This document shows positions 1,601-60,835 of a stretch of DNA of 64,000 bases, piece after piece. The position numbers and the translations under genes are program-made. This stretch comes from Escherichia coli. Its GTDB lineage: Bacteria; Pseudomonadota; Gammaproteobacteria; Enterobacterales; Enterobacteriaceae. The notes beneath the pieces are model-generated. The model had not been told where the DNA came from and searched no databases. It worked only from the letters and a program-made list of their open reading frames with translations. Where the stretch lies: the NCBI RefSeq assembly GCF_003790525.1, contig NZ_CP033633.1; one strand, 5' to 3'. Position 1 is the stretch's first letter, and each line of letters begins with the position of its first letter.

Positions 1601-4600
1601 ATGAATAAGAATATACGAATTTTACAATTTCTGGTCAGTATACTTTATTCTGTGCAGTCTCATTTTTCTAGTGCGCAAACAATACAACTGAATGGTAATG
1701 GTATACCTGAAAGTATAACCAGGAGTATTACAGGTGTTGATGGAAACGCGGCGCTTAATATCAGCGTGCCGTATAAAACAAGTTATACTCAAAATATACT
1801 ATCTGTTGAAAGCAGTATTAACATCAAAGGAGGAACAAGCAATACATCAATCGGTGGTGCAGGTGTCTACGGTGAAAACTTTACGCTAAATAATAATGGT
1901 AGTGTTTGGGGAGGAGATGGATATAATGGTGGAATTGCTGTTAGTGGCAACAAAATATCTATAAACAATTACAGAAATGTATATGGGGGTAATGGTCTTG
2001 GTGGCTCAGGAAGTAGCGGAGGTGCAGGGTTAAGCGGGGATGATATTATAGTTGATAATTACAGAAGTATATACGGAGGTGATGATGTAGGTGGGACAGG
2101 TGGTTCCGGTGTAACCGGTAGCAATATTACAGTGCATAATTCCGGAGGAATATTGGGCGGTAATGGCGTAAACGGTGGTGATGGTATTAATGGTAGTAAT
2201 CTTTTCATTACTAACGACAACATGATATCTGGAGGATATGGAATAAAACAAGGGGGAGATGCTATTTCTGGAAATCAAATCACTTTGAATAATAACGGTA
2301 TTGTTCAGGGGGGATATGGCCCCGACGGTGGTTGCTCTGTTTATGGAGAAGATATCCATATTAATAATCATGGTAATCTTTCAGGATTATATAATAGCCA
2401 AAAAGATGCTTATAATACATCAATAATTTTTTCTGGCGGGTATAATTCATTAGATATTTATTCAGATTCTGTGATTAATGGTGATATTAAACTAGCTAGT
2501 ATACCTGTTAATGGTACAAATGAATTAATTATTAAGAACATCAATAACGCAACAGCAATTAATGGTGGGCTAATGATTGGGAATGGCTCATCTGTTTATC
2601 TGTCAGGCAAGAACTCCATTTTTAACGGAAATATAAGTATTGATGAAGACGCATCTATGAACCTGTCTGTAGGAAATGCTAATGTTCACGCAAATACTAT
2701 TACATTAAAAAGTGATTCATGGCTTAATATAGACACATCAATTAAGAACTGGACTCAGGACTATTACACATTATTGTCGTCAGACACAGGTATCTCGATC
2801 GCTGATAATAGTCACATTGTACAATACAATGTATTACTGACAGAAGGTGCTGAAAGTTATGTTTATACGTCTTTAAATGACGACGATAACAAACTGATAT
2901 CCATGCTGAGATGGAATAATACAAAAGGGATGGGATATGGAACCTTTAATATAGAAAAAGATGCCACTCTGAACATAGGCGTTTCTCTTTCCGATAATCT
3001 TTCACCTTTATTATATGATGGCTGGGACGGCAAAAGTCTGACAAAATCAGGTAATGGTACTCTTATACTTTCTGCAACAAACAATTATACAGGAAATACA
3101 GAGGTTAAATCTGGCGTATTAATTCTTGCTGCACCTGATGCTCTTGGTCGGACTGAGTATTTATATTTATCCCGTGGCGCAGAACTGGATATGAATGGGT
3201 ATCCTCAGACAATAAGCAAACTACTGACGGCTGCAGGCTCTGTGCTGAACATTCATGGCGGAAGTCTGATACTGAATAATGGAGGAGAATCTGCAGGTAC
3301 TATTGCAGGGGATGGTTCTCTGAACATAAATGGGGGAATGCTTGATATAACGGGTAATAATCGTAATTTTTCCGGTGTTTTTACCGTGAATAAGGGGGCT
3401 CATTTGGCTGTATCCACGGCTGATAATCTGGGGACAGCCTTTGTTGATAACTATGGCACATTAACTCTGAACAGTACATCAGCATGGCAGCTTACCAACA
3501 ATATCAGTGGTTATGGTAATGTTCGCAAGACGGGAGCAGGTGCACTGAACATTAGCGATAACGCAAAATGGAGCGGGATGACAGATATTATTCAGGGGAC
3601 AGTGATACTGGGGAACGCAGATTCACCGGTGATGCTCGGCAGTAACCAGGTCATTGTTGAAGAGCAGGGCAAACTCTCCGGGTTTGGGGGCGTTGCAGGA
3701 AATCTGAGCAATAGTGGTATAGTCGATCTCACTACATATATGCCGGGTAATATACTGACTGTCGGAGGGAATTACACTGGCAGAAATGGACTTATTCTCC
3801 TCCAGACAGAAACAGGTGGTGACAATTCGAAAACAGATCGTCTGGTGATTAAAGGTAATGCCAGTGGCCGTACCCGTGTCGCTGTTACTCAGGCCGGTGG
3901 TTCTGGTGCAGAGACACTTAATGGGATTGAAGTGATTCACGTCAGTGGCAATGCTGATAATGCTGAATTCATTCAGACGGAACGTATTACAGCCGGAGCT
4001 TATGATTACATACTGAAACGTGGTCAGGGGATTAACAGCACTAACTGGTATCTGATTAGCAGAAAAGACATTCCTGTACCACAACCTGAAGCTGTACCGG
4101 AAAACCATGATAATAATTTGCGTCCTGAGGCAGGTAGCTATGTTGCCAGTATTGCTGCTGCAAATAATCTGTTTGTAACGAATCTGTATGAACGACAGGG
4201 ACAGGAGTTGTATATCAGCCACATGACAGGAGAAGAAAATGAAGCAGGTATCTGGATGTATAATAAAGGAAAACATAATCGCTGGCGTGACAACAGTAGT
4301 CAGCTGAGAACCCGGGGGAATAGCTACGTTGTGTTAATAGGGGGAGATATAGCTCAGTGGAGCCTGAATGGTACCGATCGCTGGCATACAGGTATGATGG
4401 CTGGCTATGGTCATAATAATAACAGTACGAATGCCCTGAGCACCGGATACCATTCGGAAGGAAGAATGAATGGATACACAGCGGGTCTTTATGCAACATG
4501 GTATGCCAATGATGAAACACACAATGGTTCTTATCTTGATAGCTGGCTGCAATACAGCTGGTTTGATAATCATATAAATGGAGAACGGCTGCCTGCTGAG

Positions 4601-5098
4601 TCATGGAAGTCAAAAGGGTTTACGGTATCTCTGGAAGCAGGATATTCATGGAAGGCTGGAGAGTTTACCGACAATTACAAGGGAAGTCATGAATGGTATG
4701 TTCAGCCGCAGCTTCAGGTTGTCCGGATGAATGTAAAATCAGACAAATATCATGAAAGTAACGGAACCAGTATTGAAAATACCGGTAACGGAAATATTCT
4801 CACCCGCCTGGGAGCAAGAACATGGCTTACCAGCAAAAACGGTAAAAATACGCGGTATGCGGTTCCGTTCAGACCATTTGTGGAGGCACACTGGTTGCAC
4901 AATAGTCGTGTTTTCGGCACCAGTATGAATGGTGTAAGTATATACCAGGATGGTGCGCGTGATATCGGAGAAATAAATGGTGGTGTTGTGGGAATGATAA
5001 CACCAGAAGTAGCATTCCGGGCTGATGCAGGCATTCAACTTGGAGAACATGGATACCATAATACATCTGCCATGTTGAGTGTGGAATATCGTTTCTGA
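1601..5098 (+). CDS. type Va autotransporter (adhesin-like): signal peptide, Gly-rich beta-helix passenger, C-terminal beta-barrel
   Basis: 1165-aa ORF; hydrophobic N-terminal leader; repeated GGNG/GGDG motifs; C-terminal ~280 aa with alternating aromatic pattern ending VEYRF; AT-rich relative to neighbours. Confidence 0.8.
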   Translation: MNKNIRILQFLVSILYSVQSHFSSAQTIQLNGNGIPESITRSITGVDGNAALNISVPYKTSYTQNILSVESSINIKGGTSNTSIGGAGVYGENFTLNNNGSVWGGDGYNGGIAVSGNKISINNYRNVYGGNGLGGSGSSGGAGLSGDDIIVDNYRSIYGGDDVGGTGGSGVTGSNITVHNSGGILGGNGVNGGDGINGSNLFITNDNMISGGYGIKQGGDAISGNQITLNNNGIVQGGYGPDGGCSVYGEDIHINNHGNLSGLYNSQKDAYNTSIIFSGGYNSLDIYSDSVINGDIKLASIPVNGTNELIIKNINNATAINGGLMIGNGSSVYLSGKNSIFNGNISIDEDASMNLSVGNANVHANTITLKSDSWLNIDTSIKNWTQDYYTLLSSDTGISIADNSHIVQYNVLLTEGAESYVYTSLNDDDNKLISMLRWNNTKGMGYGTFNIEKDATLNIGVSLSDNLSPLLYDGWDGKSLTKSGNGTLILSATNNYTGNTEVKSGVLILAAPDALGRTEYLYLSRGAELDMNGYPQTISKLLTAAGSVLNIHGGSLILNNGGESAGTIAGDGSLNINGGMLDITGNNRNFSGVFTVNKGAHLAVSTADNLGTAFVDNYGTLTLNSTSAWQLTNNISGYGNVRKTGAGALNISDNAKWSGMTDIIQGTVILGNADSPVMLGSNQVIVEEQGKLSGFGGVAGNLSNSGIVDLTTYMPGNILTVGGNYTGRNGLILLQTETGGDNSKTDRLVIKGNASGRTRVAVTQAGGSGAETLNGIEVIHVSGNADNAEFIQTERITAGAYDYILKRGQGINSTNWYLISRKDIPVPQPEAVPENHDNNLRPEAGSYVASIAAANNLFVTNLYERQGQELYISHMTGEENEAGIWMYNKGKHNRWRDNSSQLRTRGNSYVVLIGGDIAQWSLNGTDRWHTGMMAGYGHNNNSTNALSTGYHSEGRMNGYTAGLYATWYANDETHNGSYLDSWLQYSWFDNHINGERLPAESWKSKGFTVSLEAGYSWKAGEFTDNYKGSHEWYVQPQLQVVRMNVKSDKYHESNGTSIENTGNGNILTRLGARTWLTSKNGKNTRYAVPFRPFVEAHWLHNSRVFGTSMNGVSIYQDGARDIGEINGGVVGMITPEVAFRADAGIQLGEHGYHNTSAMLSVEYRF

Positions 5099-5244: not shown

Positions 5245-6030
5245 GTTTAGGAGAGCCTGTTTAGGATTCTGTGTAAATGCCTTTTCTCAGAAGTGACCGT
5301 CCAGGCGGTCACCGAACTCGATAATAAAGCGGCTCATTGCCATTCGCCAGTCCTTCAACGGCATCGTCCATTTCTGGGACGCAGACTGGATTGCCAGCCA
5401 CACCACTTTTTTCACCGAGTCGTCTGTCGGGAACACTTTACGCTTTTTGATCGCATGGCGGATCACGCTGTTTAGCGACTCGATGGCATTCGTCGTATAG
5501 ATCACTTTGCGGATGTCCGTTGGATAAGCGAAGAACGTGGCAAGATTCGGCCAGTTAGCCTGCCAGCTTCGGCTTATCTGAGGATAGCGACTGTCCCAGG
5601 CCGCAGCGAACGCTTCCAGTGCCTGCTGACCTGCCTCTTCCGTGGGAGCCTGATAAATCGCTTTCAGGTCGCGAGTGACGGCTTTGTAGTCCTTCCATGA
5701 CACGAAGCGCAGGCTGTTGCGCACCATATGCACGATGCATAACTGGATGCGGGCCTTCGGATATACTGTGTTGATGGCATCCGGGAAGCCTTTCAGGCCA
5801 TCCACACAGGCGATGAGGATATCGTTCAGACCGCGGTTTTTCAGTTCAGTCAGCACATTGAGCCAGAACTTCGCCCCTTCATTTTCGGCCAGCCACATAC
5901 CCAGCAGTTCTTTCTGACCTTCGATATTGATGCCCAGTGCCAGGAACACCGATTTGTTGATGACGCGACTGTCCTGCCGAACTTTCAGGACGATACAGTC
6001 AAGATAAACAATTGATAAACAGCATCCAGT
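5245..6030 (-). mobile_element. IS256-family element fragment, copy 1 (transposase 3' two-thirds, 5287-~6000; N-terminal part replaced)
   Basis: ORF 5287-6114 encodes ...ALGINIEGQKELLGMW...LIACVDGLKGFPDAI...CIVHMVRNSLRFVSWKDYKAV... typical of IS256/mutator transposases; same sequence recurs at 10491 and 57069. Confidence 0.7.
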
Positions 6031-6112
6031 GTAAGCGTACAGCCTGAACCGTCTGGTCAGAATCTGACGAATTAGACAAAGTGATGTCCACCAAATAAGT
6101 GAAGTGCGCCCC
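6031..6112 (+). mobile_element. IS66-family left terminal fragment (same as left end of complete copy at 11269)
   Basis: gtaagcgtacagcctgaaccgtctggtcagaatctgacgaattagacaaagtg... shared with 11269-11337, then diverges. Confidence 0.5.
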
Positions 6113-6147
6113 AATAGTTAGACACCAGATCTGTAACTGAGGAGCGT

Positions 6148-6456
6148 ATGAGCAAATTTTCATTAGAATTCAAAAGGGAAGTATCAGAAAAATACCTGGA
6201 AGGTGAGCTGAGTTTGAAGTCTGTTGGAAAAATGTACAATATTGACCCCAGCACGGTAAGGAAATGGGCTTATGTTTACCGTAAGCACGGATTAAAAACA
6301 CTGACTGGGCAAAAAAGACGTTATGACGATAACTTCAGATTGAATGTGGTCAGAGATGTTATTGATAATTCTCTTTCTATAAGGGAAGCTGCAGTGAAGT
6401 ATGGGATCCCTGCTTTTAACACCATATCCAAATGGATTAAAAAATACAGTGAGTGA
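6148..6456 (+). CDS. HTH-domain transposase OrfA-like protein of a truncated IS (element cut by IS629)
   Basis: 102-aa ORF with helix-turn-helix-like segments; ends 3 bp from IS629 terminus; assignment by general resemblance only. Confidence 0.35.
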   Translation: MSKFSLEFKREVSEKYLEGELSLKSVGKMYNIDPSTVRKWAYVYRKHGLKTLTGQKRRYDDNFRLNVVRDVIDNSLSIREAAVKYGIPAFNTISKWIKKYSE

Positions 6457-6495
6457 ACCGCCCCGGGTTTCCTGGAGAGTGTTTTATCTGTGAAC

Positions 6496-7386
6496 TCAGG
6501 CTGCCAGATCATCGTTTCCGATGGAAGCATAATAAGCTTTTTCTGCTTCTGCCGGTGGGATATGGCCCAGCCTTTCCAGCAATCGTCGATTGTTATACCA
6601 GTCCACCCACGTGAGTGTGGCCAGCTCCACTTCTGTCCGGTTTTTCCAGCTCTTACGGTGTATTACCTCCGCTTTGTAAAGGCCATTGATGCTCTCCGCC
6701 ATCGCGTTGTCATACGAGTCACCAGTACTTCCTGTTGATGCCAGTAATCCGGCTTCCTTAAGCCGCTGTGTGTAGGCCAGCGATACATACTGAGAACCTT
6801 TATCACTGTGATGGACTGTGCCGGACGGTCGACGGGCCCATAACGCCTGCTCCAGAGCATCCAGCACGAATGTCGTTTCCATAGACGATGAGACCCGCCA
6901 CCCCACGATGTATCCGGCAAACACATCAATGATGAACGCCACATAGACGACCCCCTGCCATGTGCTGACGTAAGTAAAATCAGCCACCCACAACTGGTCA
7001 GGACGTTCTGCCACAAACTGACGGTTTACGCGGTCGCCTGCGGCAACGGCTTTCCGGCTGACGGTAGTGCGGACCTTTTTACCCCGGAGAACACCGGCAA
7101 GTCCCATAACCGCCATGAGGCGCGCCACTGTACATCTGGCTACCCTGATTCCTTCCCGTAACAACTGACGCCAGACTTTACGCACACCATATACCTGATG
7201 ATTCCCATCGTATACGCGCAGTATCTCTTTCTTCAGCCAGTCATCGCGCTGCGCACGGGCACTGCGTTTATAAGGATGATGTCGCTGTTGCTGACAGTGG
7301 TAATACGTTGACGGGGCAATATGTAGTTCACTGCATACCGGTCCGACCCCGTACAGCTTACGCAGCTTATCCAGCAGTGGCATCAC
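6496..7386 (-). CDS. IS629 transposase OrfB
   Basis: 296-aa ORF; DDE integrase core (HSDKGSQY...[15 protein letters not shown]); overlaps orfA as in IS3 family. Confidence 0.85.
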
Positions 7387-7709
7387 TTTTTCCAGAGGCG
7401 GTCGAACTCCGCCTTCGCAAAATAAGCGGAAGCCTGGCGAAGGATATCGTTACTGCGGCGCAGTTCACGATTTTCACGTTCCAGCTCTTTCAGACGCTGA
7501 CGTTCAGCGGTGGTGAGCCCGCCATCACCGCCTCCGGTATCCCGCTCATGCTGGCGTACCCAGACACGCAGAGTCTCCGGTGTACAGCCAATCTTTGGGG
7601 CAATGGAACAAATTGCCGCCCACTGTGAGTCATATTCGCCCTGACTTTCCAGAACCATACGAATCGCCCTCTGACGGACTTCGGGGGAAAAACGAGTATT
7701 TTTAGTCAT
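7383..7709 (-). CDS. IS629 transposase OrfA
   Basis: 108-aa [33 protein letters not shown]... with leucine-zipper tail. Confidence 0.85.
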
Positions 7710-8003
7710 TCTGTTTACCTCTTTATCAGGGAGTTTAGTCTCCAGGATTCCCGGGGCGGTTCAGTTTTCACTCAGCTATGAACAACTGACCCGGTTTGCG
7801 GAACGACGCATCCGGGAATGCAATCTGGACAGCCAGGGCGCGATTTATCTCTGCGAGTCAGCCAAAGCCGGAGCCGTGCTGATCTTCTGGCATGAACTGG
7901 CCATAAATGGCTATACCTCAATGAATGCCATAAAAAGACAGGAGATCATTGACGCCGACCATCAGCGCCTCAGAAAGCTTATCTGGCCGGAGGATGACTG
8001 GAA

Positions 8004-8594
8004 ATGACCCAGAGCCGCCGACCGTCGCCACTGCAACGGAGAGTGCTGATTGTGCTGGCTGCCCTTGATGAAAAACGGCCAGGCCCCGTGCTGACGCGGG
8101 ACATAGAACGGGTGCTGGAGCGAAGCGGGGAAGCCCCGGTCTACGGGCCAAACCTGCGCGCCTCCTGCCGTCGTCTGGAGGATGCCGGATGGCTGCGTAC
8201 CCTGCGCGCTCCGAACCTGCAGCTGGCAGTGGAACTGACGGACGCCGGCCGGGCCGTGGCACAGCCTCTGCTGCTGGCAGAACAGGACCGCCTCCGGGCA
8301 GAACAGCGTGCGGCAGAAGTCGTCGTACTGCCGCTGGTCCCGGCAGCAGGTCTGCCCGCAGACGGCACTTCTGCCACTGATCTGGCGGTGGAGCTGAACG
8401 GCATGACGTATCAGGCCTGCCGCGAGGATTTTGTGGTACGTCTCGACGGCAGCACCTGTCTGCAGTTATGGAATAAAGAAGGCAGGGTGGTACGGCGGGA
8501 GGGCGATCCGCTGGAAGTGGCGCAGTGGCTGCAGGCCTGTCACGATGCCGGAATGGAGGTTCGTGTACAGGTTAATGAAAGCGTCACCCCGTAA
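8004..8594 (+). CDS. hypothetical high-GC protein, possible winged-helix DNA-binding N-terminus
   Basis: 196-aa ORF; start overlaps stop (ATGA) of an upstream gene remnant at 7767-8006 that is cut by IS629. Confidence 0.45.
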   Translation: MTQSRRPSPLQRRVLIVLAALDEKRPGPVLTRDIERVLERSGEAPVYGPNLRASCRRLEDAGWLRTLRAPNLQLAVELTDAGRAVAQPLLLAEQDRLRAEQRAAEVVVLPLVPAAGLPADGTSATDLAVELNGMTYQACREDFVVRLDGSTCLQLWNKEGRVVRREGDPLEVAQWLQACHDAGMEVRVQVNESVTP

Positions 8595-9114
8595 CAGTAT
8601 TTCCCGCTCCGTGAAATTGAAACTTTGCAATTAATTCTTTGAGCGTCTTAGCTTTACAAGTAGTGATATGTCGCTTCCGTCAGGAATTTCGAGTTTTCTT
8701 ATCCGGTGATGTAGCCCGACATCAGTTTTATATCCAAGCAGTCTGGTGGCCTGGCTTATTGTTACTTGTATAACGACCTTTGTTCAGTTCAGTACATTCC
8801 GTCCCAGTTCGGACGGTTGTTTTTTTATGATGAAATGCTGTAGGAATATACTGACACGTGCATTACCCCTACCGCGATAATGCAACCGTACAATATAGGG
8901 CGTTTCCTAAACGCAGCCCTCATCACTCCAATCCAACAAGACACAGCATTTTTGATCACGAAGAAAGACAAATATATTTCCGTTGTTACAAATAACAACA
9001 GTGTTTTATATTTCTTTGACCTCAGGCCCGCGCATGTTGCCATTCGATGTCATTTTCCTGACTCGTTTCTTCTTTATGGTGTAGTGTGATCTTCACTTTA
9101 TGGATGCTAACAAT

Positions 9115-10473
9115 ATGAAAAGAAAAATTATTCCTGTGCTAATCGGTTGTACGCTCTCTTTCTCTGCCCTGGCGGCACAACCTACGGCTGAGCGCTATGT
9201 CGTCAGTTTTCCAGAAGGCACGCACGTGAACTACGCCGGCGCATTTGCTAGTGCATTCCCGAACGGCCTTCCGGTTGGGATAGGTTCTGGCCTGCTGTTC
9301 ACCGGTAAACAGGGCGATGCCCTGACATTCGCAACCATTACCGATCGCGGTCCGAACGCGGATTCACCGAAAGAGGGGAAAAACGAAACTAAAATTTTCG
9401 TTACGCCAGATTTCGCGCCGCTGCTGATGACGATTCGTGTACAAAACGGCAAAGCGGAGGCCATCGATCCCCGTCCTCTGCATGACGATAAAGGCGCGAT
9501 CAACGGTCTGCCGCTGGCAAGTGACGTGATTGGATCCACCAATGAAGTGGCCTTCAGCGACACGTTACATAGACTGAAGGGGGATAATCGCGGGCTGGAT
9601 ACGGAAGGGATCACTCCGGATGGTAAAGGAGGTTACTGGCTGTGCGATGAGTATGGCCCGTTCCTGATTAACATCGACAGTAAAGGGAAAATCCTGGCAA
9701 TCCACGGTCCGCAGGCGGCGGAAGGGGAAAAAGTGATTGCGGGCGGTTTGCCAAATATCCTCAAATGGCGTCAGGCGAACCGCGGCTTTGAAGGCCTCAC
9801 CCGTATGCCGGACGGGCGTATTATTGCCGCCGTGCAAAGTACGCTGGATATCGACGCTAAGAGCAAGGAAAAGGCGCTGTTTACGCGTCTGGTGAGCTTC
9901 GATCCGGCAAGCGGAAAAACCGCGATGTACGGTTATCCTATCGACAGCGCGGCCTACAGCAAAAACAGCGACGCTAAAATCGGAGACATCGTGGCGCTCG
10001 ATAACCAGCGCATCCTGCTGATCGAACAGGGAAGAGATAAAAACAACAGAATGCGTAACCTGATTTACGAGGTCGATCTCAATAAGGCGAGCGACCTGTC
10101 AGGCTTCGACAAGCCGGGTGAGTATCCGGAGTTTGATGATGAGAAAACCCTGTCACAGCGAGGCATTACCCTTGCGCAGAAAACGCAGGTTGTTGATCTG
10201 CGCTCCTTGGGCTGGCAGCAGGAGAAGGCTGAAGGGTTGGCGCTGATCGACAGCAAAACGCTGGCGGTGGCGAACGATAACGACTTTGGCGTGAAGGTGG
10301 CGATGCAACATCCGGTTGAGGGCAAGACATTCAAGGATTATCGGGTGAACGCGGAAGGAAAGCTGACGCTTGACGACAAGCAGGTTGAAACGACCCTCAG
10401 AGTGAAGCCACTGGAGAAACCGGAGTCTGACAGTGAACTGTGGATTGTGACGCTGCCGGAAGCGTTGAAATAA
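9115..10473 (+). CDS. secreted protein, phytase-like esterase family (tentative)
   Basis: Signal peptide MKRKIIPVLIGCTLSFSALAA; 452 aa; family assignment from memory of conserved blocks only. Confidence 0.5.
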   Translation: MKRKIIPVLIGCTLSFSALAAQPTAERYVVSFPEGTHVNYAGAFASAFPNGLPVGIGSGLLFTGKQGDALTFATITDRGPNADSPKEGKNETKIFVTPDFAPLLMTIRVQNGKAEAIDPRPLHDDKGAINGLPLASDVIGSTNEVAFSDTLHRLKGDNRGLDTEGITPDGKGGYWLCDEYGPFLINIDSKGKILAIHGPQAAEGEKVIAGGLPNILKWRQANRGFEGLTRMPDGRIIAAVQSTLDIDAKSKEKALFTRLVSFDPASGKTAMYGYPIDSAAYSKNSDAKIGDIVALDNQRILLIEQGRDKNNRMRNLIYEVDLNKASDLSGFDKPGEYPEFDDEKTLSQRGITLAQKTQVVDLRSLGWQQEKAEGLALIDSKTLAVANDNDFGVKVAMQHPVEGKTFKDYRVNAEGKLTLDDKQVETTLRVKPLEKPESDSELWIVTLPEALK

Positions 10474-10490
10474 GTTTATAAGGTACGGAC

Positions 10491-11268
10491 AGGAGCCTGT
10501 TTAGGATTCTGTGTAAATGCCTTTTCTCAGAAGTGACCGTCCAGGCGGTCACCGAACTCGATAATAAAGCGGCTCATTGCCATTCGCCAGTCCTTCAACG
10601 GCATCGTCCATTTCTGGGACGCAGACTGGATTGCCAGCCACACCACTTTTTTCACCGAGTCGTCTGTCGGGAACACTTTACGCTTTTTGATCGCATGGCG
10701 GATCACGCTGTTTAGCGACTCGATGGCATTCGTCGTATAGATCACTTTGCGGATGTCCGTTGGATAAGCGAAGAACGTGGCAAGATTCGGCCAGTTCCTG
10801 CCAGCTTCGGCTTATCTGAGGATAGCGACTGTCCCAGGCCGCAGCGAACACTTCCAGTGCCTGCTGACCTGCCTCTTCCGTGGGAGCCTGATAAATCGCT
10901 TTCAGGTCGAGAGTGACGGCCTTGTAGTCCTTCCATGACACGAAGCGCAGGCTGTTGCGCACCATATGCACGATGCATAACTGGATGCGGGCCTTCGGAT
11001 ATACTGTGTTGATGGCATCCGGGAAGCCTTTCAGGCCATCCACACAGGCGATGAGGATATCGTTCAGACCGCGGTTTTTCAGTTCAGTCAGCACATTGAG
11101 CCAGAACTTCGCCCCTTCATTTTCGGCCAGCCACATACCCAGCAGTTCCTTCTGACCTTCGATATTGATGCCCAGTGCCAGGAACACCGATTTGTTGATG
11201 ACGCGACTGTCCTGCCGAACTTTCAGGACGATACAGTCAAGATAAACAATGGGTAAACAGCATCCAGT
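10491..11268 (-). mobile_element. IS256-family element fragment, copy 2 (transposase frameshifted: ORFs 10527-10745 and 10678-11187)
   Basis: Near-identical to 5245-6030 but with a 2-bp deletion near 10797 splitting the ORF. Confidence 0.7.
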
Positions 11269-11339
11269 GTAAGCGTACAGCCTGAACCGTCTGGTCAGAA
11301 TCTGACGAATTAGACAAAGTGGTGTCCACCAAATAAGTA

Positions 11340-21331: not shown

Positions 21332-22195
21332 TTATTGTTCAGTTAACTTCATTTCGACAAGTAAAGGTAAATGATCTGAGACAGATGCATATGGCTTACT
21401 TTCAGGGGTCGCTCTATCTGACGGTTTAGGAATATATACATCTTTAATGTCCCATTTTTGAGCATTTGATGTAAGTATATAATCAATTTTCCTGTCTGGA
21501 TTCCATGATGGTGCCGTGTACTTCAATTCCTTATCAGTGTCATTGAACCATGCTGTTAAATCCAAGTACTCTGTTGATTGAGGTGGTAAATTAAGATCAC
21601 CCACTATAATTGGAAGTGCATTTTTAAACTGCCAAGAAGAGAATTCTGTTTGAAGAGTTCTTACTTGCTCTGCTCGTAATGGCTGCGTAGTGAAGTCCAA
21701 ATGAGTAGTTACTAACATAACAGGCGCAGGATAATTAGGGACATCAACTTCTACAGCACAGGCCGCTCTTTGCTCCGCACCTTTGATGTTAGGTAGTTCC
21801 ATCCTTTTACTCAATTTCAAATCATACTTAGACAGTACTGCTGTACCATATTCCCCACCATCATGATCTATAGCCTTGCAGAAGTAATAATTCATTCCCA
21901 ACTTATTAGCTATATACTCTGCTTGATTGACTGGGTTAGAACCCTCTTTACTAAAGTTCTTACCAGAACGCCCAGTCATGTTATCAACTTCTTGCAGTCC
22001 AATAATATCAACATTCATTTTACGAATTGCTTCTACAATGGCATCAGTACTCCCCATTCTAGAGGCCATTATGTTATATGACCCAACACGAATACTATCG
22101 GTATCTGCTGGACCATCCATGAGGCGATCAGAAGCTAAAGTTGAAGAGGAAAGAACTATAAACCCTATAACCGCAGCAATGCTTGTTAATTTCAT
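21332..22195 (-). CDS. secreted endonuclease/exonuclease/phosphatase (EEP, DNase I-like fold) family protein
   Basis: Signal peptide MKLTSIAAVIGFIVLSSSTLA; ...DIIGLQEV... near N-terminus and ...SDHLPLLVEM... near C-terminus; AT-rich. Confidence 0.65.
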   Translation of the reverse strand: MKLTSIAAVIGFIVLSSSTLASDRLMDGPADTDSIRVGSYNIMASRMGSTDAIVEAIRKMNVDIIGLQEVDNMTGRSGKNFSKEGSNPVNQAEYIANKLGMNYYFCKAIDHDGGEYGTAVLSKYDLKLSKRMELPNIKGAEQRAACAVEVDVPNYPAPVMLVTTHLDFTTQPLRAEQVRTLQTEFSSWQFKNALPIIVGDLNLPPQSTEYLDLTAWFNDTDKELKYTAPSWNPDRKIDYILTSNAQKWDIKDVYIPKPSDRATPESKPYASVSDHLPLLVEMKLTEQ

Positions 22196-22376
22196 TTTTA
22201 CACCTTGTTATTTTTGATAGTAAATTTACATATCAAAATAAATCATAAAATCGCTTTTTTTAGTGATAAAAACCTCAAAAACAAAAACAATTAGTGATCA
22301 ACATCTCATAAGTAGTACATTTATCAACCGTTCCATTAATGTTTCATTCTATCGCGAATTAGGTAATGACTCCAAC

Positions 22377-22880
22377 TTATTGATAGTGTTTTATGTTCAG
22401 ATAATGCCCGATGACTTTGTCATGCAGCTCCACCGATTTTGAGAACGACAGCGACTTCCGTCCCAGCCGTGCCAGGTGCTGCCTCAGATTCAGGTTATGC
22501 CGCTCAATTCGCTGCGTATATCGCTTGCTGATTACGTGCAGCTTTCCCTTCAGGCGGGATTCATACAGCGGCCAGCCATCCGTCATCCATATCACCACGT
22601 CAAAGGGTGACAGCAGGCTCATAAGACGCCCCAGCGTCGCCATCGTGCGTTCACCGAATACGTGCGCAACAACCGTCTTCCGGAGCCTGTCATACGCGTA
22701 AAACAGCCAGCGCTGGCGCGATTTAGCCCCGACATAGCTCCACTGTTCGTCCATTTCCGCGCAGACGATGACGTCACTGCCCGGCTGTATGCGCGAGGTT
22801 ACCGACTGCGGCCTGAGTTTTTTAAGTGACGTAAAATCGTGTTGAGGACAACGCCCATAATGCGGGCTGTTGCCCGGCAT
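22377..22880 (-). CDS. insB: IS1 InsB
   Basis: Near-identical to 20359-20862. Confidence 0.85.
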
Positions 22881-23074
22881 CCAACGCCATTCATGGCCAT
22901 ATCAATGATTTTCTGGTGCGTACCGGGTTGAGAAGCGGTGTAAGTGAACTGCAGTTGCCATGTTTTACGGCAGTGAGAGCAGAGATAGCGCTGATGTCCG
23001 GCGGTGCTTTTGCCGTTACGCACCACCCCGTCAGTAGCTGAACAGGAGGGACAGCTGATAGAAACAGAAGCCAC
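22799..23074 (-). CDS. insA: IS1 InsA
   Basis: Near-identical to 20165-20440. Confidence 0.9.
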
Positions 23075-23304
23075 TGGAGCACCTCAAAAACACCATCATA
23101 CACTAAATCAGTAAGTTGGCAGCATCACCCAGGGGGCCAGTCTAGCAGATTATGGTGCGCAGTTATACAACAGCAGTAATGAGGAGTCTACTATTTCTCT
23201 TGTTATGCCAGATGCAATTGAATGGAACGGAAAGAATACGCCAAGACGGCAATACATGATAAAATATATTGCCGTATTTAAATATTAAAATTTATTTTTG
23301 TAGA

Positions 23305-23712
23305 TTATCTGAATTTTCGGTGACCTTCAAGTTTTATATCGTTCATTTTATCCAGAGACTCACGTAATGATTCTATATCCCCGTCCTCAACTTTCTTTTT
23401 TGCAATATTGATTTCATGTTGTAGTTTTTTTAACTCTTCCTTATAACTATCTACAGAAACTTTATCATTAACATCTATCTTTTCAGGAATAATATTCATA
23501 GAAGAATCTACAGCTTTATCCATCATTTCAAGAGCATTTAATAGTGATGATTTATCATTGGAAGATTGTAGAATACTCATACTTTTGGCAAGAGACTGCA
23601 TGTTTTTATCCAGGCCAGAAGCCAAAGATACGTTGCTGAGAGATAAAAAAATAGCTAGTACAGCACCTGAGAAAAATACCTTTTGTTTTTTCATTAATAT
23701 ATTCCTGTTCAA
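23305..23712 (-). CDS. small secreted four-helix protein, cytochrome b562-like (tentative)
   Basis: Signal peptide; ~110-aa mature helical protein ending ...EGHRKFR (cf. cytochrome b562 C-terminus); AT-rich. Confidence 0.45.
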   Translation of the reverse strand: MNRNILMKKQKVFFSGAVLAIFLSLSNVSLASGLDKNMQSLAKSMSILQSSNDKSSLLNALEMMDKAVDSSMNIIPEKIDVNDKVSVDSYKEELKKLQHEINIAKKKVEDGDIESLRESLDKMNDIKLEGHRKFR

Positions 23713-24078
23713 AGTTGATTATAGTTATGTCAATTTAAGTTTATTATTATGATTTTTTATTTTTGTACTATGAATCTCCTGTATGCTTATATGTGCAGAA
23801 AATCTCATTTTATCAAGAAGAATATCAAATTTTCTCCGATACTTCTACATACTCCATCATTCATGCTCCTTTTATCCGTGCACCGTAAAACCCCGTCCTT
23901 CAGCGGGGATATAAGGCGCTGTTTTCCACCTAACCAGGTGTCTGCTGCTATTCAATGTATTGGCGGATGACGGATGCCGCCCGTTGAAGCAGGAACCCAC
24001 GTCCTTAGGGCGTGGAGGATGTCAAATACCCGCCCTCATTGAGAGAGAAGCTACGAGATTTTCGCTAAGGGACACAGG

Positions 24079-25560
24079 TCATACGGGAGATGGCGGTTCC
24101 CAGCGTTTATCCTGCTCCGGCGGAGGCAGTGATGCGTCATCGTTGCTGTTCGCCGCGATATAATCGCGGTAGTAGCGTTCACTTCCTTCCCGGTGATGAT
24201 CCACATCCGGTCGTGTAATCCTGTAGTCTTCGTGACCGGTACGGCCTGTCACATTATGCCAGGCAACCATTTCAGCAAAGACCTGGTTAAATTGTTTGTC
24301 GTTTCCTTCTGGTTCAAAGCCCATTCTGGGATCACGCTCAAACAATACAGGTGCAATCAAATCCAGTTTATCTGCCAGCGCATTGCGGTCATGGTGATTA
24401 CGGAAAACAACCCTGTCACCATAATCCGTACAGACAAACTCTCCCGTCCGACGGTCACGGAAACGAACACTCCCGTTCTTCTGCAAACGGGCCTCGAGAT
24501 CACCGGTATTACCGTATACCGGCGTTCCGCCCGGTTCACAAAGCACGACACAGCGGTCTGTTGTTGTTGTGCGTGACTTGTCTTTACGGCGATCGCGATA
24601 ATCCCAGCCTCTCAACTGCGATACAGCAGCCCTGTCTCCCTGAGCAGCCTGAATTTCGACCCACTGACGGTAAGAGGGTGGATACCACTTCCCGTCAGCA
24701 ATAAGTTTCTGTCGCTCATCCCTGATGTCTTCTTTCAGCCTGATCAACGCCTGCATTCGCTGAACTTCTGCAATGTGATAATGCAGCTTACGTAATGCCG
24801 GATCATCGTACTGCGCACGAATGTGTGACTTCCGCAGACGGCATGCCTGATGAATTTCCCGACAACGTTCCCCATTACGCAGATCTGGTTTACGCCATTG
24901 TTCACGCCATGCCAGATAGCGGGCACGCAGGTCAGCACGGGCCTCAGCTCTGGCTTCACGTCGCTGCCGGCGCAGCATTGGGTCACGTTTACTGCTGACC
25001 CCGTACCTGTCACTGACAGCCAGCTCCGGGTTATAGCGACTTTCAGGTTGCACCCTGTCAAACAAATCTGCTGGGGCACTCACAAAAGGTCCGGCCTGTG
25101 GCTCTGCACGCCCCAGAGTCAGATCAGGATGAATGCTGCTGGCCTTCACCGGCGTTTGCTCATGATTAAAGGCATCAACGACAACAAGCCCGTGATGTTG
25201 TTTCTGTAGCATCAGTCCCTGTTGTGCAAACAGCTCATGACAACGCTGCCAGGTAAACTCACCCTGTGTGATCATTTCTTCAATCTGAGGGCTACAATGG
25301 CTGATGCTGTATCCCCACAGACTTTCTTTATCAGAAAACAGTTCGCGTTTGATATCCCCCTGCGGCCCCGTGCCTGTACGCATACGGTGCCATTCTTTAT
25401 CGGTCGCAGGACAGCTCTCCATACGACGACCACGGAAGCGTTCTGTTGGCGTAACCTGGCGGAAAATATCTGTTGGTACAGGCTGCCAGCCACCATCGAG
25501 TTGATTCACATTGTCGAGCGTCAGCAGTGACCATACGGTGTCAGCACGAACGGGAGTCTG
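24079..25560 (-). pseudogene. relaxase fragment: paralogue of the C-terminal ~490 aa of the NikB-like relaxase at 53701-56403; nuclease domain missing
   Basis: Long collinear similarity (QTPVRADxxWxLLTLxN...WHRMRTGxGPQGxIKRExFSDKESLWGY...) to the 900-aa relaxase but lacking the HxH relaxase motifs. Confidence 0.65.
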
Positions 25561-25599
25561 GTTATGATATTTTTCGGATCCCGGTGAAAAAAGAGAGAA

Positions 25600-25720
25600 A
25601 CATGCAGATACCATGCATATCCATATGTTTGGCATCTGCATATGACAGGCATACGCATATCTCACACATCTGCATATCTATAACATATACATATGTATCA
25701 CATCTGCATATACTAAACAT
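25600..25720. repeat. array of ~6 imperfect direct repeats with 17-bp periodicity (ATCTGCATAT-N7)
   Basis: GCATAT cores at 25615, 25638, 25655, 25672, (25689 variant), 25706. Confidence 0.5.
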
Positions 25721-25750
25721 ATATAAAAGCCGTCTTGCCAGGAGGAAGAC

Positions 25751-25981
25751 ATGAGAACCGTATCTATTTTCAAAAATGGCAATAACCGCGCGATCCGTCT
25801 GCCCCGCGATCTGGATTTTGAGGGGGTGAGTGAGCTGGAGATTGTACGGGAAGGGGACAGAATCATTCTGCGTCCCCTCCGCCCGAGCTGGAGCTCATTC
25901 CTGGAGCTAGAAAAGGCCGATCCGGGCTTTATGACGGAACGCGAGGACGTTGTCTGCGACGAAGGACGATTTAACCTGTGA
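25751..25981 (+). CDS. vapB: VapB/VagC-type antitoxin (AbrB/SpoVT fold)
   Basis: 76-aa ORF MRTVSIFKNGNNRAIRLPRDL...; overlaps downstream PIN toxin. Confidence 0.8.
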   Translation: MRTVSIFKNGNNRAIRLPRDLDFEGVSELEIVREGDRIILRPLRPSWSSFLELEKADPGFMTEREDVVCDEGRFNL

Positions 25982-26394
25982 ACAAGATCTATATGCTCGA
26001 CACGAACATCTGCTCGTTCATCATGCGCGAGCAGCCTGAAGCAGTGCTTAAGAATCTGGAGCAGGCGGTGCTGCGCGGTCACCGTATAGTGGTCTCGGCC
26101 ATCACCTACTCCGAGATGCGCTTCGGCGCCACCGGTCCAAAGGCATCGCCACGCCACGTGCAGCTGGTTGACGCGTTCTGCGCCCGTCTCGATGCCATCC
26201 TGCCCTGGGATCGCGCTGCGGTGGATGCAACCACGGAGGTTAAGGTGGCGCTGCGCCTCGCCGGCACGCCGATCGGTCCGAACGACACGGCGATCGCCGG
26301 GCACGCCATCGCCACCGGGGCAATACTGGTGACGAATAATGTGAGAGAGTTTGAGCGGGTGCCTGGACTGGTACTGGAAGACTGGGCAGGATAA
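25978..26394 (+). CDS. vapC: VapC/VagD PIN-domain toxin
   Basis: 138-aa ORF MLDTNICSF... with acidic PIN residues; hairpin terminator at 26402-26425. Confidence 0.85.
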   Translation: MNKIYMLDTNICSFIMREQPEAVLKNLEQAVLRGHRIVVSAITYSEMRFGATGPKASPRHVQLVDAFCARLDAILPWDRAAVDATTEVKVALRLAGTPIGPNDTAIAGHAIATGAILVTNNVREFERVPGLVLEDWAG

Positions 26395-26955
26395 AGGAGT
26401 AAGGCCGCCCCCGACGGCCTTACCACTATTTTGCGATGTCAGTCGTATTCATTTTCAGCGTTAAAAAAGGGCTCTATACGAATACGTGTATCAGCGTGAG
26501 TAAGTTTCGGCGGCCTGATAAATCCACTATTTCCCAGCTGGACAGCCAGTTGCCACATGGCATCACTACGGGGAATGCTACGATAATTCCTCTCTGTGAG
26601 GAAAGCGGCATAATCCTGATGCCCGAACGTCATGAGCACCTGTCTGATGAACTTGTGTGACCCACCGTCATTTTTAAGACATTGCATCAGCAGTGCCTGC
26701 TTCTGCCGGTCATCGGTTATTTTGGTGGAGAACCTTATCAGGGCTTGCTGGCTGAGAAGTGGTGCCTCAGAGAGCAGGGCTTCATCTTTTTCCCAGAGCC
26801 AGTTCAGGATACTGATACAGACTTCATCTGCAATCTTATCGCCATTCAGAATTAAACGAGTAATCCCCAGGTCAAACTGGTCATCAGCAAATAAAACAAG
26901 CTGAACCGCCCCGGGAATCCTGGAGACTAAACTCCCTGATAAAGAGGTAAACAGA

Positions 26956-27282
26956 ATGACTAAAAATACTCGTTTTTCCCCCGAAGTCCGTCAGAGGGCG
27001 ATTCGTATGGTTCTGGAAAGTCAGGGCGAATATGACTCACAGTGGGCGGCAATTTGTTCCATTGCCCCAAAGATTGGCTGTACACCGGAGACTCTGCGTG
27101 TCTGGGTACGCCAGCATGAGCGGGATACCGGAGGCGGTGATGGCGGGCTCACCACCGCTGAACGTCAGCGTCTGAAAGAGCTGGAACGTGAAAATCGTGA
27201 ACTGCGCCGCAGTAACGATATCCTTCGCCAGGCTTCCGCTTATTTTGCGAAGGCGGAGTTCGACCGCCTCTGGAAAAAGTGA
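26956..27282 (+). CDS. IS629 transposase OrfA
   Basis: Identical protein to 7383-7709. Confidence 0.85.
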
Positions 27283-28169
27283 TGCCACTGCTGGATAAGC
27301 TGCGTAAGCTGTACGGGGTCGGACCGGTATGCAGTGAACTACATATTGCCCCGTCAACGTATTACCACTGTCAGCAACAGCGACATCATCCTTATAAACG
27401 CAGTGCCCGTGCGCAGCGCGATGACTGGCTGAAGAAAGAGATACTGCGCGTATACGATGGGAATCATCAGGTATATGGTGTGCGTAAAGTCTGGCGTCAG
27501 TTGTTACGGGAAGGAATCAGGGTAGCCAGATGTACAGTGGCGCGCCTCATGGCGGTTATGGGACTTGCCGGTGTTCTCCGGGGTAAAAAGGTCCGCACTA
27601 CCGTCAGCCGGAAAGCCGTTGCCGCAGGCGACCGCGTAAACCGTCAGTTTGTGGCAGAACGTCCTGACCAGTTGTGGGTGGCTGATTTTACTTACGTCAG
27701 CACATGGCAGGGGGTCGTCTATGTGGCGTTCATCATTGATGTGTTTGCCGGATACATCGTGGGGTGGCGGGTCTCATCGTCTATGGAAACGACATTCGTG
27801 CTGGATGCTCTGGAGCAGGCGTTATGGGCCCGTCGACCGTCCGGCACAGTCCATCACAGTGATAAAGGTTCTCAGTATGTATCGCTGGCCTACACACAGC
27901 GGCTTAAGGAAGCCGGATTACTGGCATCAACAGGAAGTACTGGTGACTCGTATGACAACGCGATGGCGGAGAGCATCAATGGCCTTTACAAAGCGGAGGT
28001 AATACACCGTAAGAGCTGGAAAAACCGGACAGAAGTGGAGCTGGCCACACTCACGTGGGTGGACTGGTATAACAATCGACGATTGCTGGAAAGGCTGGGC
28101 CATATCCCACCGGCAGAAGCAGAAAAAGCTTATTATGCTTCCATCGGAAACGATGATCTGGCAGCCTGA
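27279..28169 (+). CDS. IS629 transposase OrfB
   Basis: Identical protein to 6496-7386. Confidence 0.85.
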
Positions 28170-28559
28170 GTTCACAGATAAAACACTCTCCAGGAAACCC
28201 GGGGCGGTTCAAACACCCTTTCTTCATCCATCCTGCGCGCTCCATCTGATAATGTTCTGACAGGTAAAAATCAAATTCTGTATGATTTTTGTGTTATCGA
28301 TTTATGATAATATCAGATATTTTTTCATTACTTATGATTAAAATCATATCTAATATGAATTTATGTGTATTGCTTAATTATCATATCACCTGCCCGTTTC
28401 CCGCCGCGCAGATCCGGTTTCCGGCTGAAGTGGATCCAGACCTGATTTGTTGCTGAGTATCGGTAAAAGTGCGGCTTATAAGCTATTCTGAAACATGGCA
28501 AGTGAATCTGGGCTGTATAATTCCGGCAAGTGTCATCTGTATTTAAAGGACGTGTGAGT

Positions 28560-29012
28560 ATGAAATTTATGGAATGTGCTGTCCGGGATGTGATTTATGG
28601 GACCAATGTCCGTCTTGTCAAACCGGTCAACATTTATGAATGTGAACTCGGGGACAATGTGTTTGTCGGCCCCTTCGTTGAGATACAGAAAGGCTGTGTC
28701 ATTGGTAGTGGAAGTCGGATACAGTCGCACACGTTTATTTGTGAGAACGTAACACTGGGGGAGAAGTGCTTCATTGGTCATAACGTGACGTTCGCCAACG
28801 ATCTGTTTCGTTCAGGAGCACCAGATCCGTCACCGGATAACTGGATCAGCATTACCCTGGGGGATTCGGTTACTGTTGGCAGTGGAGCCATTATTCTGTC
28901 TCCGTATATATGCAGCGGAGCTGTTATTGGTGCGGGTTCAGTTGTGGTAAAACCGATTGAGAACAAAGGCATTTATGCAGGAAACCCGGCAAGACTGCTC
29001 AGAATATTATGA
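28560..29012 (+). CDS. hexapeptide-repeat (left-handed beta-helix) acyl/acetyltransferase
   Basis: Repeated [LIV]G-x4 hexads (VFVGPF, CVIGSG, VTLGEK, CFIGHN, VTVGSG, AVIGAG); SD aagga upstream of ATG 28560. Confidence 0.7.
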   Translation: MKFMECAVRDVIYGTNVRLVKPVNIYECELGDNVFVGPFVEIQKGCVIGSGSRIQSHTFICENVTLGEKCFIGHNVTFANDLFRSGAPDPSPDNWISITLGDSVTVGSGAIILSPYICSGAVIGAGSVVVKPIENKGIYAGNPARLLRIL

Positions 29013-29018
29013 AAAAGA

Positions 29019-29045
29019 AAAGGGCCGTTACTGGCCCTTTTTATC
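29019..29045 (+). terminator. rho-independent terminator (GGGCC-N6-GGCCC + T-run)
   Basis: aaagggccgttactggcccttttta directly after the acetyltransferase stop. Confidence 0.5.
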
Positions 29046-29225
29046 AGAGGTAGGTCTGTGAATACGGCAGGTGTACAGAAATCGACTGCCGGGGATCGAT
29101 TTCCAGGGCCGCCCGGTATTCTGCGTCAGTGATATCACCTTTTTTCGGTAAATAACCGAGAGCATCGTTTCCCAGCCCTGACAGTATGCGTATTCTGGCG
29201 ATCCGGAAATCAAACAGGCTGTCCA

Positions 29226-29408
29226 TCATACCATGCTCCGGAAATGCGGGAGGAGTGGCCAGATAGGCAGGTTTGACCATTGTCCTAAAGTGCCTTCAGG
29301 AAGAGATAATCGGGAAGCGCCTTCACTGATCGAAAGTTGATTTTCAAGAACCGTTCTGACAGCTTCGGCTTTGAACTCTTTAGAGTAACGTTGGGTTTTT
29401 CTGCTCAT
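29226..29408 (-). pseudogene. IS3-family transposase OrfA N-terminal remnant
   Basis: MSRKTQRYSKEFKAEAVRTVLENQLSISEGASRLSLPEGTLGQW then frame lost. Confidence 0.5.
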
Positions 29409-30389
29409 TATTAGCTCCTTCTGATGCCATTCTATTTCAGGAAGGAGTGTCCGTTAAACCCAGGCTACCTCATAGTTCATTTTCTGTTGATGCGCTGAAG
29501 ATCATTTCATTCAAAATACTGACATCTTTCATAAAGACCTCCATTTTATGTCGGGGAAAAATAAAGCACAGATAAACCATATTTTCACATTTAATTTACA
29601 AATTAGTGGTATCAGTCACAAATAACTTACAGGTCCGGTAATATCGGTCTGTTAGTGATATTTACTGAAAATGATGGAAAGATATTGATAACGTGGTTGC
29701 CATAACCAATGCTTCAGGGAAGCCGATATGGTTAATGTCATTACAATCGTCGCCACAGTTGCCTGTGTATCCGGATATTTGAAATGGATCTTCCAGAAGC
29801 GGACTCGGGTAGTATCTTCATGGTTTGGCTTTCAGCAGATCTGTGACTCTGCTATTTATTGATGAATATGACCTTTACAATTCCAGTTATTGTTCTGATT
29901 GCAATAATCACTTCATCACAATAATCCACCATTTTTTGTGATTATCTGGCAATAATTTTCTTTTCTGCTCCAGAGATCCGAAAACTCCTGGTTCCGGATC
30001 CGCGGATCCTTCGCTGCCGCCCGCTGGTCCGCTTTCACAGGATGTGGTGTCCCGCTCCGCTGACATGACACTGTATGTTGTGTTTCTTCCCGTGTTCCCG
30101 AGCCAGTCATCAGCGGCAGAAAAGATCGCTTCGCTTATTCACTGATCCTGATTCACTTCCGGAAAATCCTGAATCCGATAAAAATCGGATCATAGAAAAA
30201 CAGTCATCCTGTAATTTATCATGGTTACTACATTGCAGGTTATTATTGTCATGATTACTTTTCAGGTCAGTTATTGATGGTGGTGTTAATAATAGCTGGA
30301 TAACAATATTCCGTTGCCGGAGGCATGTTATAGCGTAATACTGGTGTATACTTAATGGTGTACAGAGAGTATGTAAGATGAGGTGCATT

Positions 30390-30915
<526 letters not shown>

Positions 30916-31725
30916 ATGTCAGGCTCCGTTATACACAGCCAGTCTGCAGCCATGGTACCGGCAGTGTATTCTGCCGGACAGTCTGCACAACTTCCTGTTG
31001 CCATTGATTATCCGGCAGCTCTGGCACTCCGCCAGATGTCGATGGTTCATGATGAACTGCCGAAATATCTGCTGGCTCCCGAGGTGAGTGCCCTGCTTCA
31101 TTATGTCCCGGATCTGCGCCGCAAGATGCTGCTGGCCACTCTGTGGAACACCGGCGCGCGTATTAATGAAGCACTAGCGCTGACGCGGGGGGATTTTTCG
31201 CTCACGCCTCCGTATCCGTTTGTGCAGCTGGCCACTCTGAAGCAGCGGACAGAAAAAGCCGCCAGGAGGGCAGGAAGGATGCCCGCCGGTCAGCAGACTC
31301 ACCGTCTGGTTCCGCTCTCCGACGCCTGGTACGTCAGCCAGCTGCAGACGATGGTGGCCACACTGAAAATCCCCATGGAACGGCGTAATAAACGAACAGG
31401 CAGGACAGAGAAAGCGCGGATCTGGGAAGTGACGGACAGAACGGTCAGGACCTGGATTGGGGAGGCGGTTGCCGCCGCTGCTGCTGACGGTGTGACGTTC
31501 TCTGTTCCGGTCACACCACATACGTTCCGCCATTCCTATGCGATGCACATGCTGTATGCCGGTATACCGCTGAAAGTTCTGCAAAGCCTGATGGGACATA
31601 AGTCCATCAGTTCAACGGAAGTCTACACGAAGGTTTTTGCGCTGGATGTGGCTGCCCGGCACCGGGTGCAGTTTGCGATGCCTGAGTCCGATGCGGTCAC
31701 AATGCTGAAAAACAGACATGTATAA
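30916..31725 (+). CDS. resD: ResD tyrosine site-specific recombinase (multimer resolvase)
   Basis: 269-aa ORF directly after ccdB as in F; C-terminal HxxR...Y catalytic region (HTFRHSYAMHMLYAG...STEVYTKV). Confidence 0.8.
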   Translation: MSGSVIHSQSAAMVPAVYSAGQSAQLPVAIDYPAALALRQMSMVHDELPKYLLAPEVSALLHYVPDLRRKMLLATLWNTGARINEALALTRGDFSLTPPYPFVQLATLKQRTEKAARRAGRMPAGQQTHRLVPLSDAWYVSQLQTMVATLKIPMERRNKRTGRTEKARIWEVTDRTVRTWIGEAVAAAAADGVTFSVPVTPHTFRHSYAMHMLYAGIPLKVLQSLMGHKSISSTEVYTKVFALDVAARHRVQFAMPESDAVTMLKNRHV

Positions 31726-57321: not shown

Positions 57322-57375
57322 TGAACCGCCCCGGAAATCCTGGAGACTAAACTTCCTGAGAAAGATGTAAACAGG

Positions 57376-58095: not shown

Positions 58096-60835
<2,740 letters not shown>

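Follow-up and report, generated by a model that had tools for sequence, protein, structure and literature searches.

IS629 insertion and a later IS629-IS629 inversion separate the plasmid gene ydfA from its control region, upstream of the overlapping gene ydeA

The window analyzed here, a 64,000-nucleotide (nt) stretch of Escherichia coli DNA (contig NZ_CP033633.1, assembly GCF_003790525.1), carries ydeA, the second gene of a common plasmid-borne pair, immediately downstream of what remains of its partner, ydfA. The 5' end of ydfA was separated from the rest of the gene by an insertion sequence of the IS3 family, which, following an earlier preliminary description, we take to be IS629. That description implied a plain insertion at the present junction; comparison with plasmid NZ_CP029742 shows instead that the element first inserted and that the segment bounded by two IS629 copies was then inverted. 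As a result of the inversion, ydfA' (the retained 3' part) and ydeA adjoin copy 1 of the element, and the ydfA start codon, Shine-Dalgarno sequence and control region adjoin copy 2 on the other strand (28212-28437). The account as a whole, comprising the split, the inversion, the consequences inferred from them and a function of the intact pair as an autoregulated operon, is in our assessment very probable. Both genes are already catalogued, yet uncharacterised; the feature is real but ordinary. Its main components are as follows.

6454-7763 (-): IS629 copy 1 (IS3 family, 1310 bp); right inverted repeat (IRR)-type end at 6454-6479, left inverted repeat (IRL)-type end at 7738-7763, adjoining ydfA'
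7764-7766 (+): target-site duplication GTT, ydfA 3'-side copy; the junction runs from ...GGCGGTTCA into GTTTTCACTC; partner GTT at 28212-28214 (-)
7764-8007 (+): ydfA', presumed pseudogene; last base of codon 6, codons 7-86 and stop, as aligned to the intact 86-residue YdfA of NZ_CP069958
8004-8594 (+): ydeA, intact, 196 codons; ATGA overlap with the ydfA stop
26902-28211 (+): IS629 copy 2, in opposite orientation to copy 1; IRR-type end at 28186-28211, adjoining the ydfA 5' end
28212-28231 (-): displaced ydfA 5' end, ATGGATGAAGAAAGGGTGTT; the first six codons and a further 2 nt, the last three bases being the second GTT copy
28232-28437 (-): ydfA leader and control region, also displaced; includes the GGAG Shine-Dalgarno sequence as well as three palindrome-like sites, each of 17 bp

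The frame said to enter from IS629 at 7767 is indeed open, with codons counted from 7768, from 7675 within the element (31 codons into it) to the TGA at 8005-8007; the boundary between element and flank lies at 7763/7764. An undisrupted copy in NZ_CP069958 reveals that intact ydfA encodes just 86 amino acids, beginning MDEERVFSLSYEQ. IS629 does cut off the 5' end of the gene, as proposed, and the coding sequence removed amounts to just 20 nt (MDEERV plus 2 nt). The invariant FSLSYEQ motif starts at the first codon retained in ydfA', and all 80 following codons are kept. The ribosome-binding site was separated from ydfA' as well, along with the control region upstream of it. The severed part was not lost, contrary to the preliminary description: a pattern search for the missing sequence found it at 28215-28252 (minus strand), directly against the IRR end of copy 2 and 20 kb from the other half. 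The two junctions read ...ATGGATGAAGAAAGGGTGTT followed by TGAACC... (ending at 28212, minus strand) and ...GGTTCA followed by GTTTTCACTC... (beginning at 7764), and the uninterrupted target in the ydfA of NZ_CP069958 reads ...AAAGGGTGTTTTCAC.... The GTT present at both junctions is thus the duplication left by one insertion into that target, IS629 having entered ydfA directly after its 20th base; a 3-bp duplication is typical of this element.

The two copies of IS629 are identical at 1310/1310 positions. Both ends carry the imperfect inverted terminal repeat TGAACCGCCCCGGG(T/A)(T/A)TCCTGGAGA, and those of copy 1 read TGAACCGCCCCGGGTTTCCTGGAGAG and TGAACCGCCCCGGGAATCCTGGAGAC. Copy 1 also has the other hallmarks of the IS3 family, a length of ~1.3 kb and orfA and orfB with a programmed frameshift, and the identical element is labeled 'IS3 family transposase, programmed frameshift' in RefSeq, where 95%-identical copies appear as 'IS3-like element IS1203 family'.

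The near-identical plasmid NZ_CP029742 (E. coli AR_0085), with 100% identity over the ydfA'-ydeA stretch, retains the simple insertion, in the order ydfA 5' end, GTT, IS629, GTT, ydfA 3' part. Alignment by blastn showed the segment between the IS629 copies to be reversed and its flanks collinear.

window 5253-7764 = NZ_CP029742 85318-87829 (+)
window 6454-15486 = NZ_CP029742 118289-109257 (-)
window 15486-24026 = NZ_CP029742 107930-99390 (-)
window 23893-28211 = NZ_CP029742 90837-86519 (-)
window 26898-31807 = NZ_CP029742 116976-121885 (+)

Relative to NZ_CP029742, the ~19 kb between the identical inverted copies is therefore flipped, presumably through homologous recombination between them. 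The outer flanks of the copies, GAG at 6451-6453 and GCT at 26901-26899 (minus-strand reading), share no common duplication, recording at least one earlier IS629-mediated event. The case resembles other IS629/IS1203 insertions followed by inversion in its 1310-bp length, TGAACCGCCCCGGG repeats, orfA/orfB frameshift and 3-bp duplication, and in having two identical inverted copies around a segment flipped relative to a sister plasmid; nothing about it is unusual. Insertion followed by inversion between element copies is routine remodelling, part of ordinary plasmid decay.

Several features bear on the expression of the separated genes. The ydfA' frame holds no in-frame ATG, GTG or TTG between the stop at 7672-7674 and the GTG at 7876, a promoter scan of 7300-8700 returned no promoter-like site, and transcription of the copy 1 transposase points away from ydfA'. 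We infer that ydfA is a pseudogene in the window. In NZ_CP029742, RefSeq annotation by the Prokaryotic Genome Annotation Pipeline (PGAP) calls the split ydfA an intact 86-residue 'hypothetical protein', WP_032353703.1 (7983-8243 of the extracted locus, equivalent to window 7747-8007), which starts at a non-canonical ATT within the IS629 inverted repeat, equivalent to window 7747. This coding sequence is an annotation artefact and should be recorded as a pseudogene. The intact ydeA retains a GGAGGA motif, located 9 nt before the start codon; cut off from its native promoter, it is probably silent or expressed by read-through only. The displaced 5' end of ydfA now reads into copy 2 from the IRR end, antisense to the transposase, forming by our reading of the sequence a 19-codon fusion open reading frame (ORF); if the ydfA promoter were still active, antisense IS629 RNA would be made at copy 2. 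The exact junction of IS629 and ydfA' is found in 7 RefSeq E. coli plasmids.

The proposal that ydfA' and the 196-codon downstream gene once formed a translationally coupled two-gene operon is borne out. The ydeA start codon (ATG, 8004-8006) overlaps the ydfA stop (TGA, 8005-8007) in an ATGA, and ydeA is GC-rich as described (64.5% compared with 51.5% for the window). In 7/7 further loci examined, stop and start codons again overlap, by 1-4 nt; the loci cover IncF, IncK, IncHI2, Klebsiella IncFIB/FII and one Citrobacter plasmid, and YdfA identity among them falls to 37%. Homologues in UniRef carry the names YdeA (E 1e-118) and YdfA (E 1e-49), and the pair corresponds to pS88108 (ydeA) and pS88109 (ydfA) of the ColV-Ia plasmid pS88 (PMC3438092). 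The ydfA' fragment, residues 7-86 of the 86-residue protein, matched 4262 plasmid records by tblastn (best E 1e-51), and the YdeA of the window is 98% identical to the main cluster of homologues.

DNA of the ydfA-ydeA pair is present in 2076/5426 complete E. coli genomes (~38%), nearly always plasmid-borne, and the region occurs in >4800 PLSDB plasmids, with IncF, IncI, IncK and IncHI2 types accounting for thousands. The window holds the named homologues, the overlap at 8004-8007 and the leader, the last present though displaced to 28232-28437. Compared with the ydfA and ydeA of R64, ColIb-P9, pS88 and pUA1135, gene order, coupled overlap, homologous proteins and a location bordering variable cargo are shared; in the window, by contrast, ydfA is split and its promoter region displaced. 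On an IncI1 plasmid, reverse-transcription PCR across the gene junctions found a single transcript to span ydfA, ydeA, ibfA and a proQ-like gene, and a promoter upstream of ydfA was predicted with BProm (PMC12111858). The literature found on ydfA and ydeA gives no published function for either protein. An O157:H7 plasmid whose megablast match began at query position 191 holds a divergent ydfA allele.

Among homologues, ydeA differs in length at the linker that joins the long helix to the C-terminal domain (NZ_CP054382 locus, 4115-4641; proteins P0094-P0120). A common 169-residue form without 27 residues (AEQRAAEVVVLPLVPAAGLPADG...) fits an 81-bp in-frame deletion. Other homologues (L004 5252-6511; L008 4249-5457; P0122, P0123, P0128 and P0131) are extended at the C-terminus by a conserved stretch of 100-230 residues, in which Pfam and PADLOC scans identified no domain. 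In L004, DpdC-like (DUF6884) and SNase genes come after the extended ydeA.

Structural models were obtained for both proteins. AlphaFold, run with a 20-sequence alignment, modeled YdeA at a predicted local distance difference test (pLDDT) score of 86.6, with an N-terminal winged helix (~9-78), a long helix (80-104) and a beta-rich C-terminal domain (127-190) predicted to be built from five strands followed by one helix and a last strand. Fold matches to this model were all winged-helix regulators, some solved with DNA, and profile matches to the MarR recognition helix and wing reached E 0.007. By structure prediction, YdeA appears to be a MarR/PadR-like protein, and on the model it would best be filed as an unclassified winged-helix regulator. 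Like the MarR, PadR and HxlR repressors, it has palindromic candidate operators in its own upstream region, and the predicted long helix after the wing recalls PadR dimers. It differs from them in its extra C-terminal domain of ~70 residues (strands, helix, strand), which yielded no fold match, in the obligatory small helical partner gene that it has in the enterobacterial clade, and in having three candidate operators at 37-bp spacing. YdfA, slightly acidic, was modeled as a three-helix bundle (pLDDT 87.9), with only generic or designed bundles as structural neighbors.

Scans of YdfA and YdeA against Pfam, NCBIfam, PADLOC and PHROGs yielded nothing above threshold apart from phrog_19460, a family of unknown function that covers YdeA residues 21-90 and is the only significant match. 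The best sub-threshold matches of YdeA were PaaX (16.9 bits, cut-off 24.8; E 0.008) and AbiEi_4 (15.1 bits, cut-off 25; E 0.025). Sequence and profile searches of the PDB returned weak MarR-region matches for YdeA and none for YdfA.

Approximately 210 bp upstream of ydfA are conserved at the DNA level in 8 loci, even where YdfA identity is as low as 37%. In the window, this AT-richer region (28212-28480, 37% GC) contains three 17-bp palindromes of the form ATCATAY-N3-RTATGAT, at 28343-28359, 28307-28323 and 28270-28286 on the minus strand. Relative to the ydfA ATG, their positions in 8/8 loci are -129/-128, -93/-92 and -56/-55, with conserved half-sites and variable centers. Throughout the window, only two sites match the motif with up to 2 mismatches, both in the ydfA control region; the third site has 3 mismatches. 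An RNA element in the leader was considered and set aside in favor of DNA operators: RNAalifold gave -5.3 kcal/mol essentially without covariation, and Rfam returned no match in the conserved leader. On the plus strand, the third palindrome is overlapped by a promoter-like site (CTGACA-18-TATGAT, 28257-28286) that faces a divergent acyltransferase gene.

The evenly spaced, conserved palindromes suggest that the pair may be autoregulated. The reading that we favor, with a confidence somewhat short of an even chance for this functional part as a whole, is that intact ydfA-ydeA forms a self-contained autoregulated operon. A YdeA dimer would bind through its winged helices to the three palindromes (ATCAT-N7-ATGAT, at intervals of ~37 bp) across its own promoter. 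YdfA would act as a small three-helix-bundle partner, held at a fixed ratio by translational coupling, and would modulate YdeA. Read-through from the pair would continue into the downstream cargo. For a very common gene pair, this provides a testable hypothesis that combines three candidate operators with a winged-helix regulator and its helical partner.

A number of observations weigh against this account. YdeA falls below the Pfam and NCBIfam cut-offs for every winged-helix family. Distant YdeA homologues (~30% identity) stand alone, without YdfA and without the palindromes; their neighborhoods contain no conserved partner or context, one of them lying in a block of UvrD, TraI_2 and integrase genes that resembles an integrative and conjugative element. 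Simple sigma-70 scans of the native region detected no consensus promoter on the ydfA strand, so that the overlap of promoter and operators rests on the BProm prediction quoted in PMC12111858. In the IncI1 system, ibfA by itself suffices for phage interference (PMC12111858). In NZ_CP054382 (3811-3858 of locus L010), an IS629-like element of 95% identity sits 47 bp upstream of the ydfA ATG, within the third palindrome; it is oriented as in the window, its IRL end facing ydfA. Approximately 474 complete E. coli records show a two-piece match with this geometry, NZ_CP054382 being the sole one inspected; should the others share the arrangement, plasmids can survive without the control region. Such insertions may reflect a single inherited event or a preferred target. 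As for the rearrangement, its direction was deduced from target-site-duplication logic, and the exact layout of the window (an upstream helix-turn-helix ORF, described below, then IS629 and ydfA') matched no record among the E. coli genome and plasmid collections searched.

Cargo downstream of ydeA differs among plasmids. IncI1 plasmids carry ibfA (HEC-04) there (PMC12111858), ColIa-type plasmids the genes for colicin Ia, its immunity protein and a DUF6404 protein, an IncK2 plasmid a 350-residue hypothetical gene followed by a proQ/finO gene, and a Citrobacter plasmid DpdC-like and SNase genes. In the window, the slot held by ibfA or colicin Ia genes in R64/ColIb-P9/pS88/pUA1135-type plasmids is occupied by a phytase-like esterase (9100-10473, plus strand), a 457-residue protein with a signal-peptide-like N-terminus (Pfam Phytase-like, E 4e-43). 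On IncF, IncI and IncK plasmids, the pair is divergent from a gene for a 136/137-residue hypothetical protein and a site-specific integrase. Comparisons of IncI1 plasmids found genes replaced from within ydeA to rfsF (PMC8004404), which, together with the varied cargo, places ydfA-ydeA at the edge of a variable or defence region. The pair thus lies where plasmids exchange colicin, defence and metabolic cargo, and a regulatory link would aid the reading of their variable regions. In the Klebsiella plasmid NZ_CP024839 (L007 845-3555), a Gabija system lies divergently upstream of the ydfA control region; its GajA matches with E 2e-217, and its 328-residue GajB covers the first ~320/471 model positions (E 1e-120).

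A broader proposal is that the pair and its three-operator region form a portable 'gatekeeper' cassette, which would mark a hotspot for cargo and defence genes on enterobacterial plasmids and control it. The YdeA C-terminal domain or YdfA would then sense a signal, phage infection or plasmid entry for example, switching on the downstream genes. We regard this extension as unlikely; if true, recurrent IS629 insertions in the control region would offer a route to constitutive or silenced cargo.

It is unlikely that the palindromes are bound by another plasmid or host factor, either Fur-like or a global plasmid regulator, with YdeA and YdfA acting elsewhere, for example in multimer resolution of the rfsF/ResD type. 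The divergent integrase and 136/137-residue gene on IncF, IncI and IncK plasmids would suit such a role, as would the position of ydeA next to rfsF in IncI1 (PMC8004404); yet the control region also travels with ydfA-ydeA beside arsR, Gabija and acyltransferase genes, where there is no integrase. By our own reading, the half-sites, rich in TGATA/TATCA, loosely resemble Fur-box hexamers. A Fur box was nevertheless rejected, the resemblance being partial only and ydfA of pS88 going down, not up, under iron chelation (PMC3438092), the opposite of Fur repression. Moreover, the confinement of the better motif matches to the ydfA control region speaks against such a factor.

More improbable still is that ydfA-ydeA is a type II toxin-antitoxin or addiction module in reverse order, with YdfA as a toxin inactivated by IS629 and YdeA as its autoregulating antitoxin. 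The pair does share with higBA, hicAB and mqsRA a small first gene overlapping a larger second one that encodes a DNA-binding (here HTH-type) domain, and a plasmid location, in this case among toxin-antitoxin genes such as ccdAB and relE/parE. The weak match of YdeA to the AbiEi_4 antitoxin winged helix fits as well, and loss of ydfA with retention of ydeA, as in the window and the 7 plasmids sharing its junction, is the direction that such a model tolerates. Unlike the toxins of those systems, however, slightly acidic YdfA has neither a toxin-like fold nor a family match; no toxin or antitoxin family in Pfam, NCBIfam or PADLOC was found above threshold for the pair, and distant YdeA homologues exist without any YdfA.

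The last alternative, that ydfA' is a chance open frame made by the junction, which the preliminary description had named as its own refutation, is as good as eliminated: the frame stays open into IS629 and its RefSeq version begins at a non-canonical ATT, but thousands of homologues with an invariant FSLSYEQ motif refute it, as do the confident fold prediction for YdfA and the conserved synteny and gene overlap.

The remaining features concern the elements themselves and the surrounding sequence. Copy 1 of IS629 encodes two overlapping reading frames.

7383-7709 (-): IS629 copy 1 orfA, 108 codons
6496-7386 (-): IS629 copy 1 orfB, 296 codons, overlapping orfA

On the other side of copy 1, a 102-codon ORF with HTH_28/HTH_Tnp_1 matches (6148-6456, plus strand), resembling orfA of another insertion sequence, enters the IRR end of IS629 and takes its TGA stop from within the element; this junction near 6454 is also present in 11 RefSeq plasmids. 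Two further segments, 57322-58095 and 60357-60880, match IS629 at just 91-94% identity, the latter ending in an IRR-type terminal repeat (60855-60880), and together they resemble an interrupted third IS629-like copy of greater divergence, with ~2.3 kb of other DNA in between.

Two stretches of NZ_CP029742, of 1.3 kb and 8.5 kb, are missing from the window. The shorter (NZ_CP029742 107931-109256; window ~15486) includes a copy of IS4321. The longer (NZ_CP029742 90838-99389) is a metabolic block of fdrA, arcC, a cytosine permease gene and a LysR-type gene, and its deletion junction in the window (23893-24026) carries a short repeat of ~130 bp. Finally, IS1414 (IS256-like) fragments at 5253-6100 and 10493-11338, ~99% identical and in the same orientation, flank the block formed by the helix-turn-helix ORF, IS629, ydfA', ydeA and the phytase-like esterase, and are a ready substrate for deleting or moving the ~5 kb between them.

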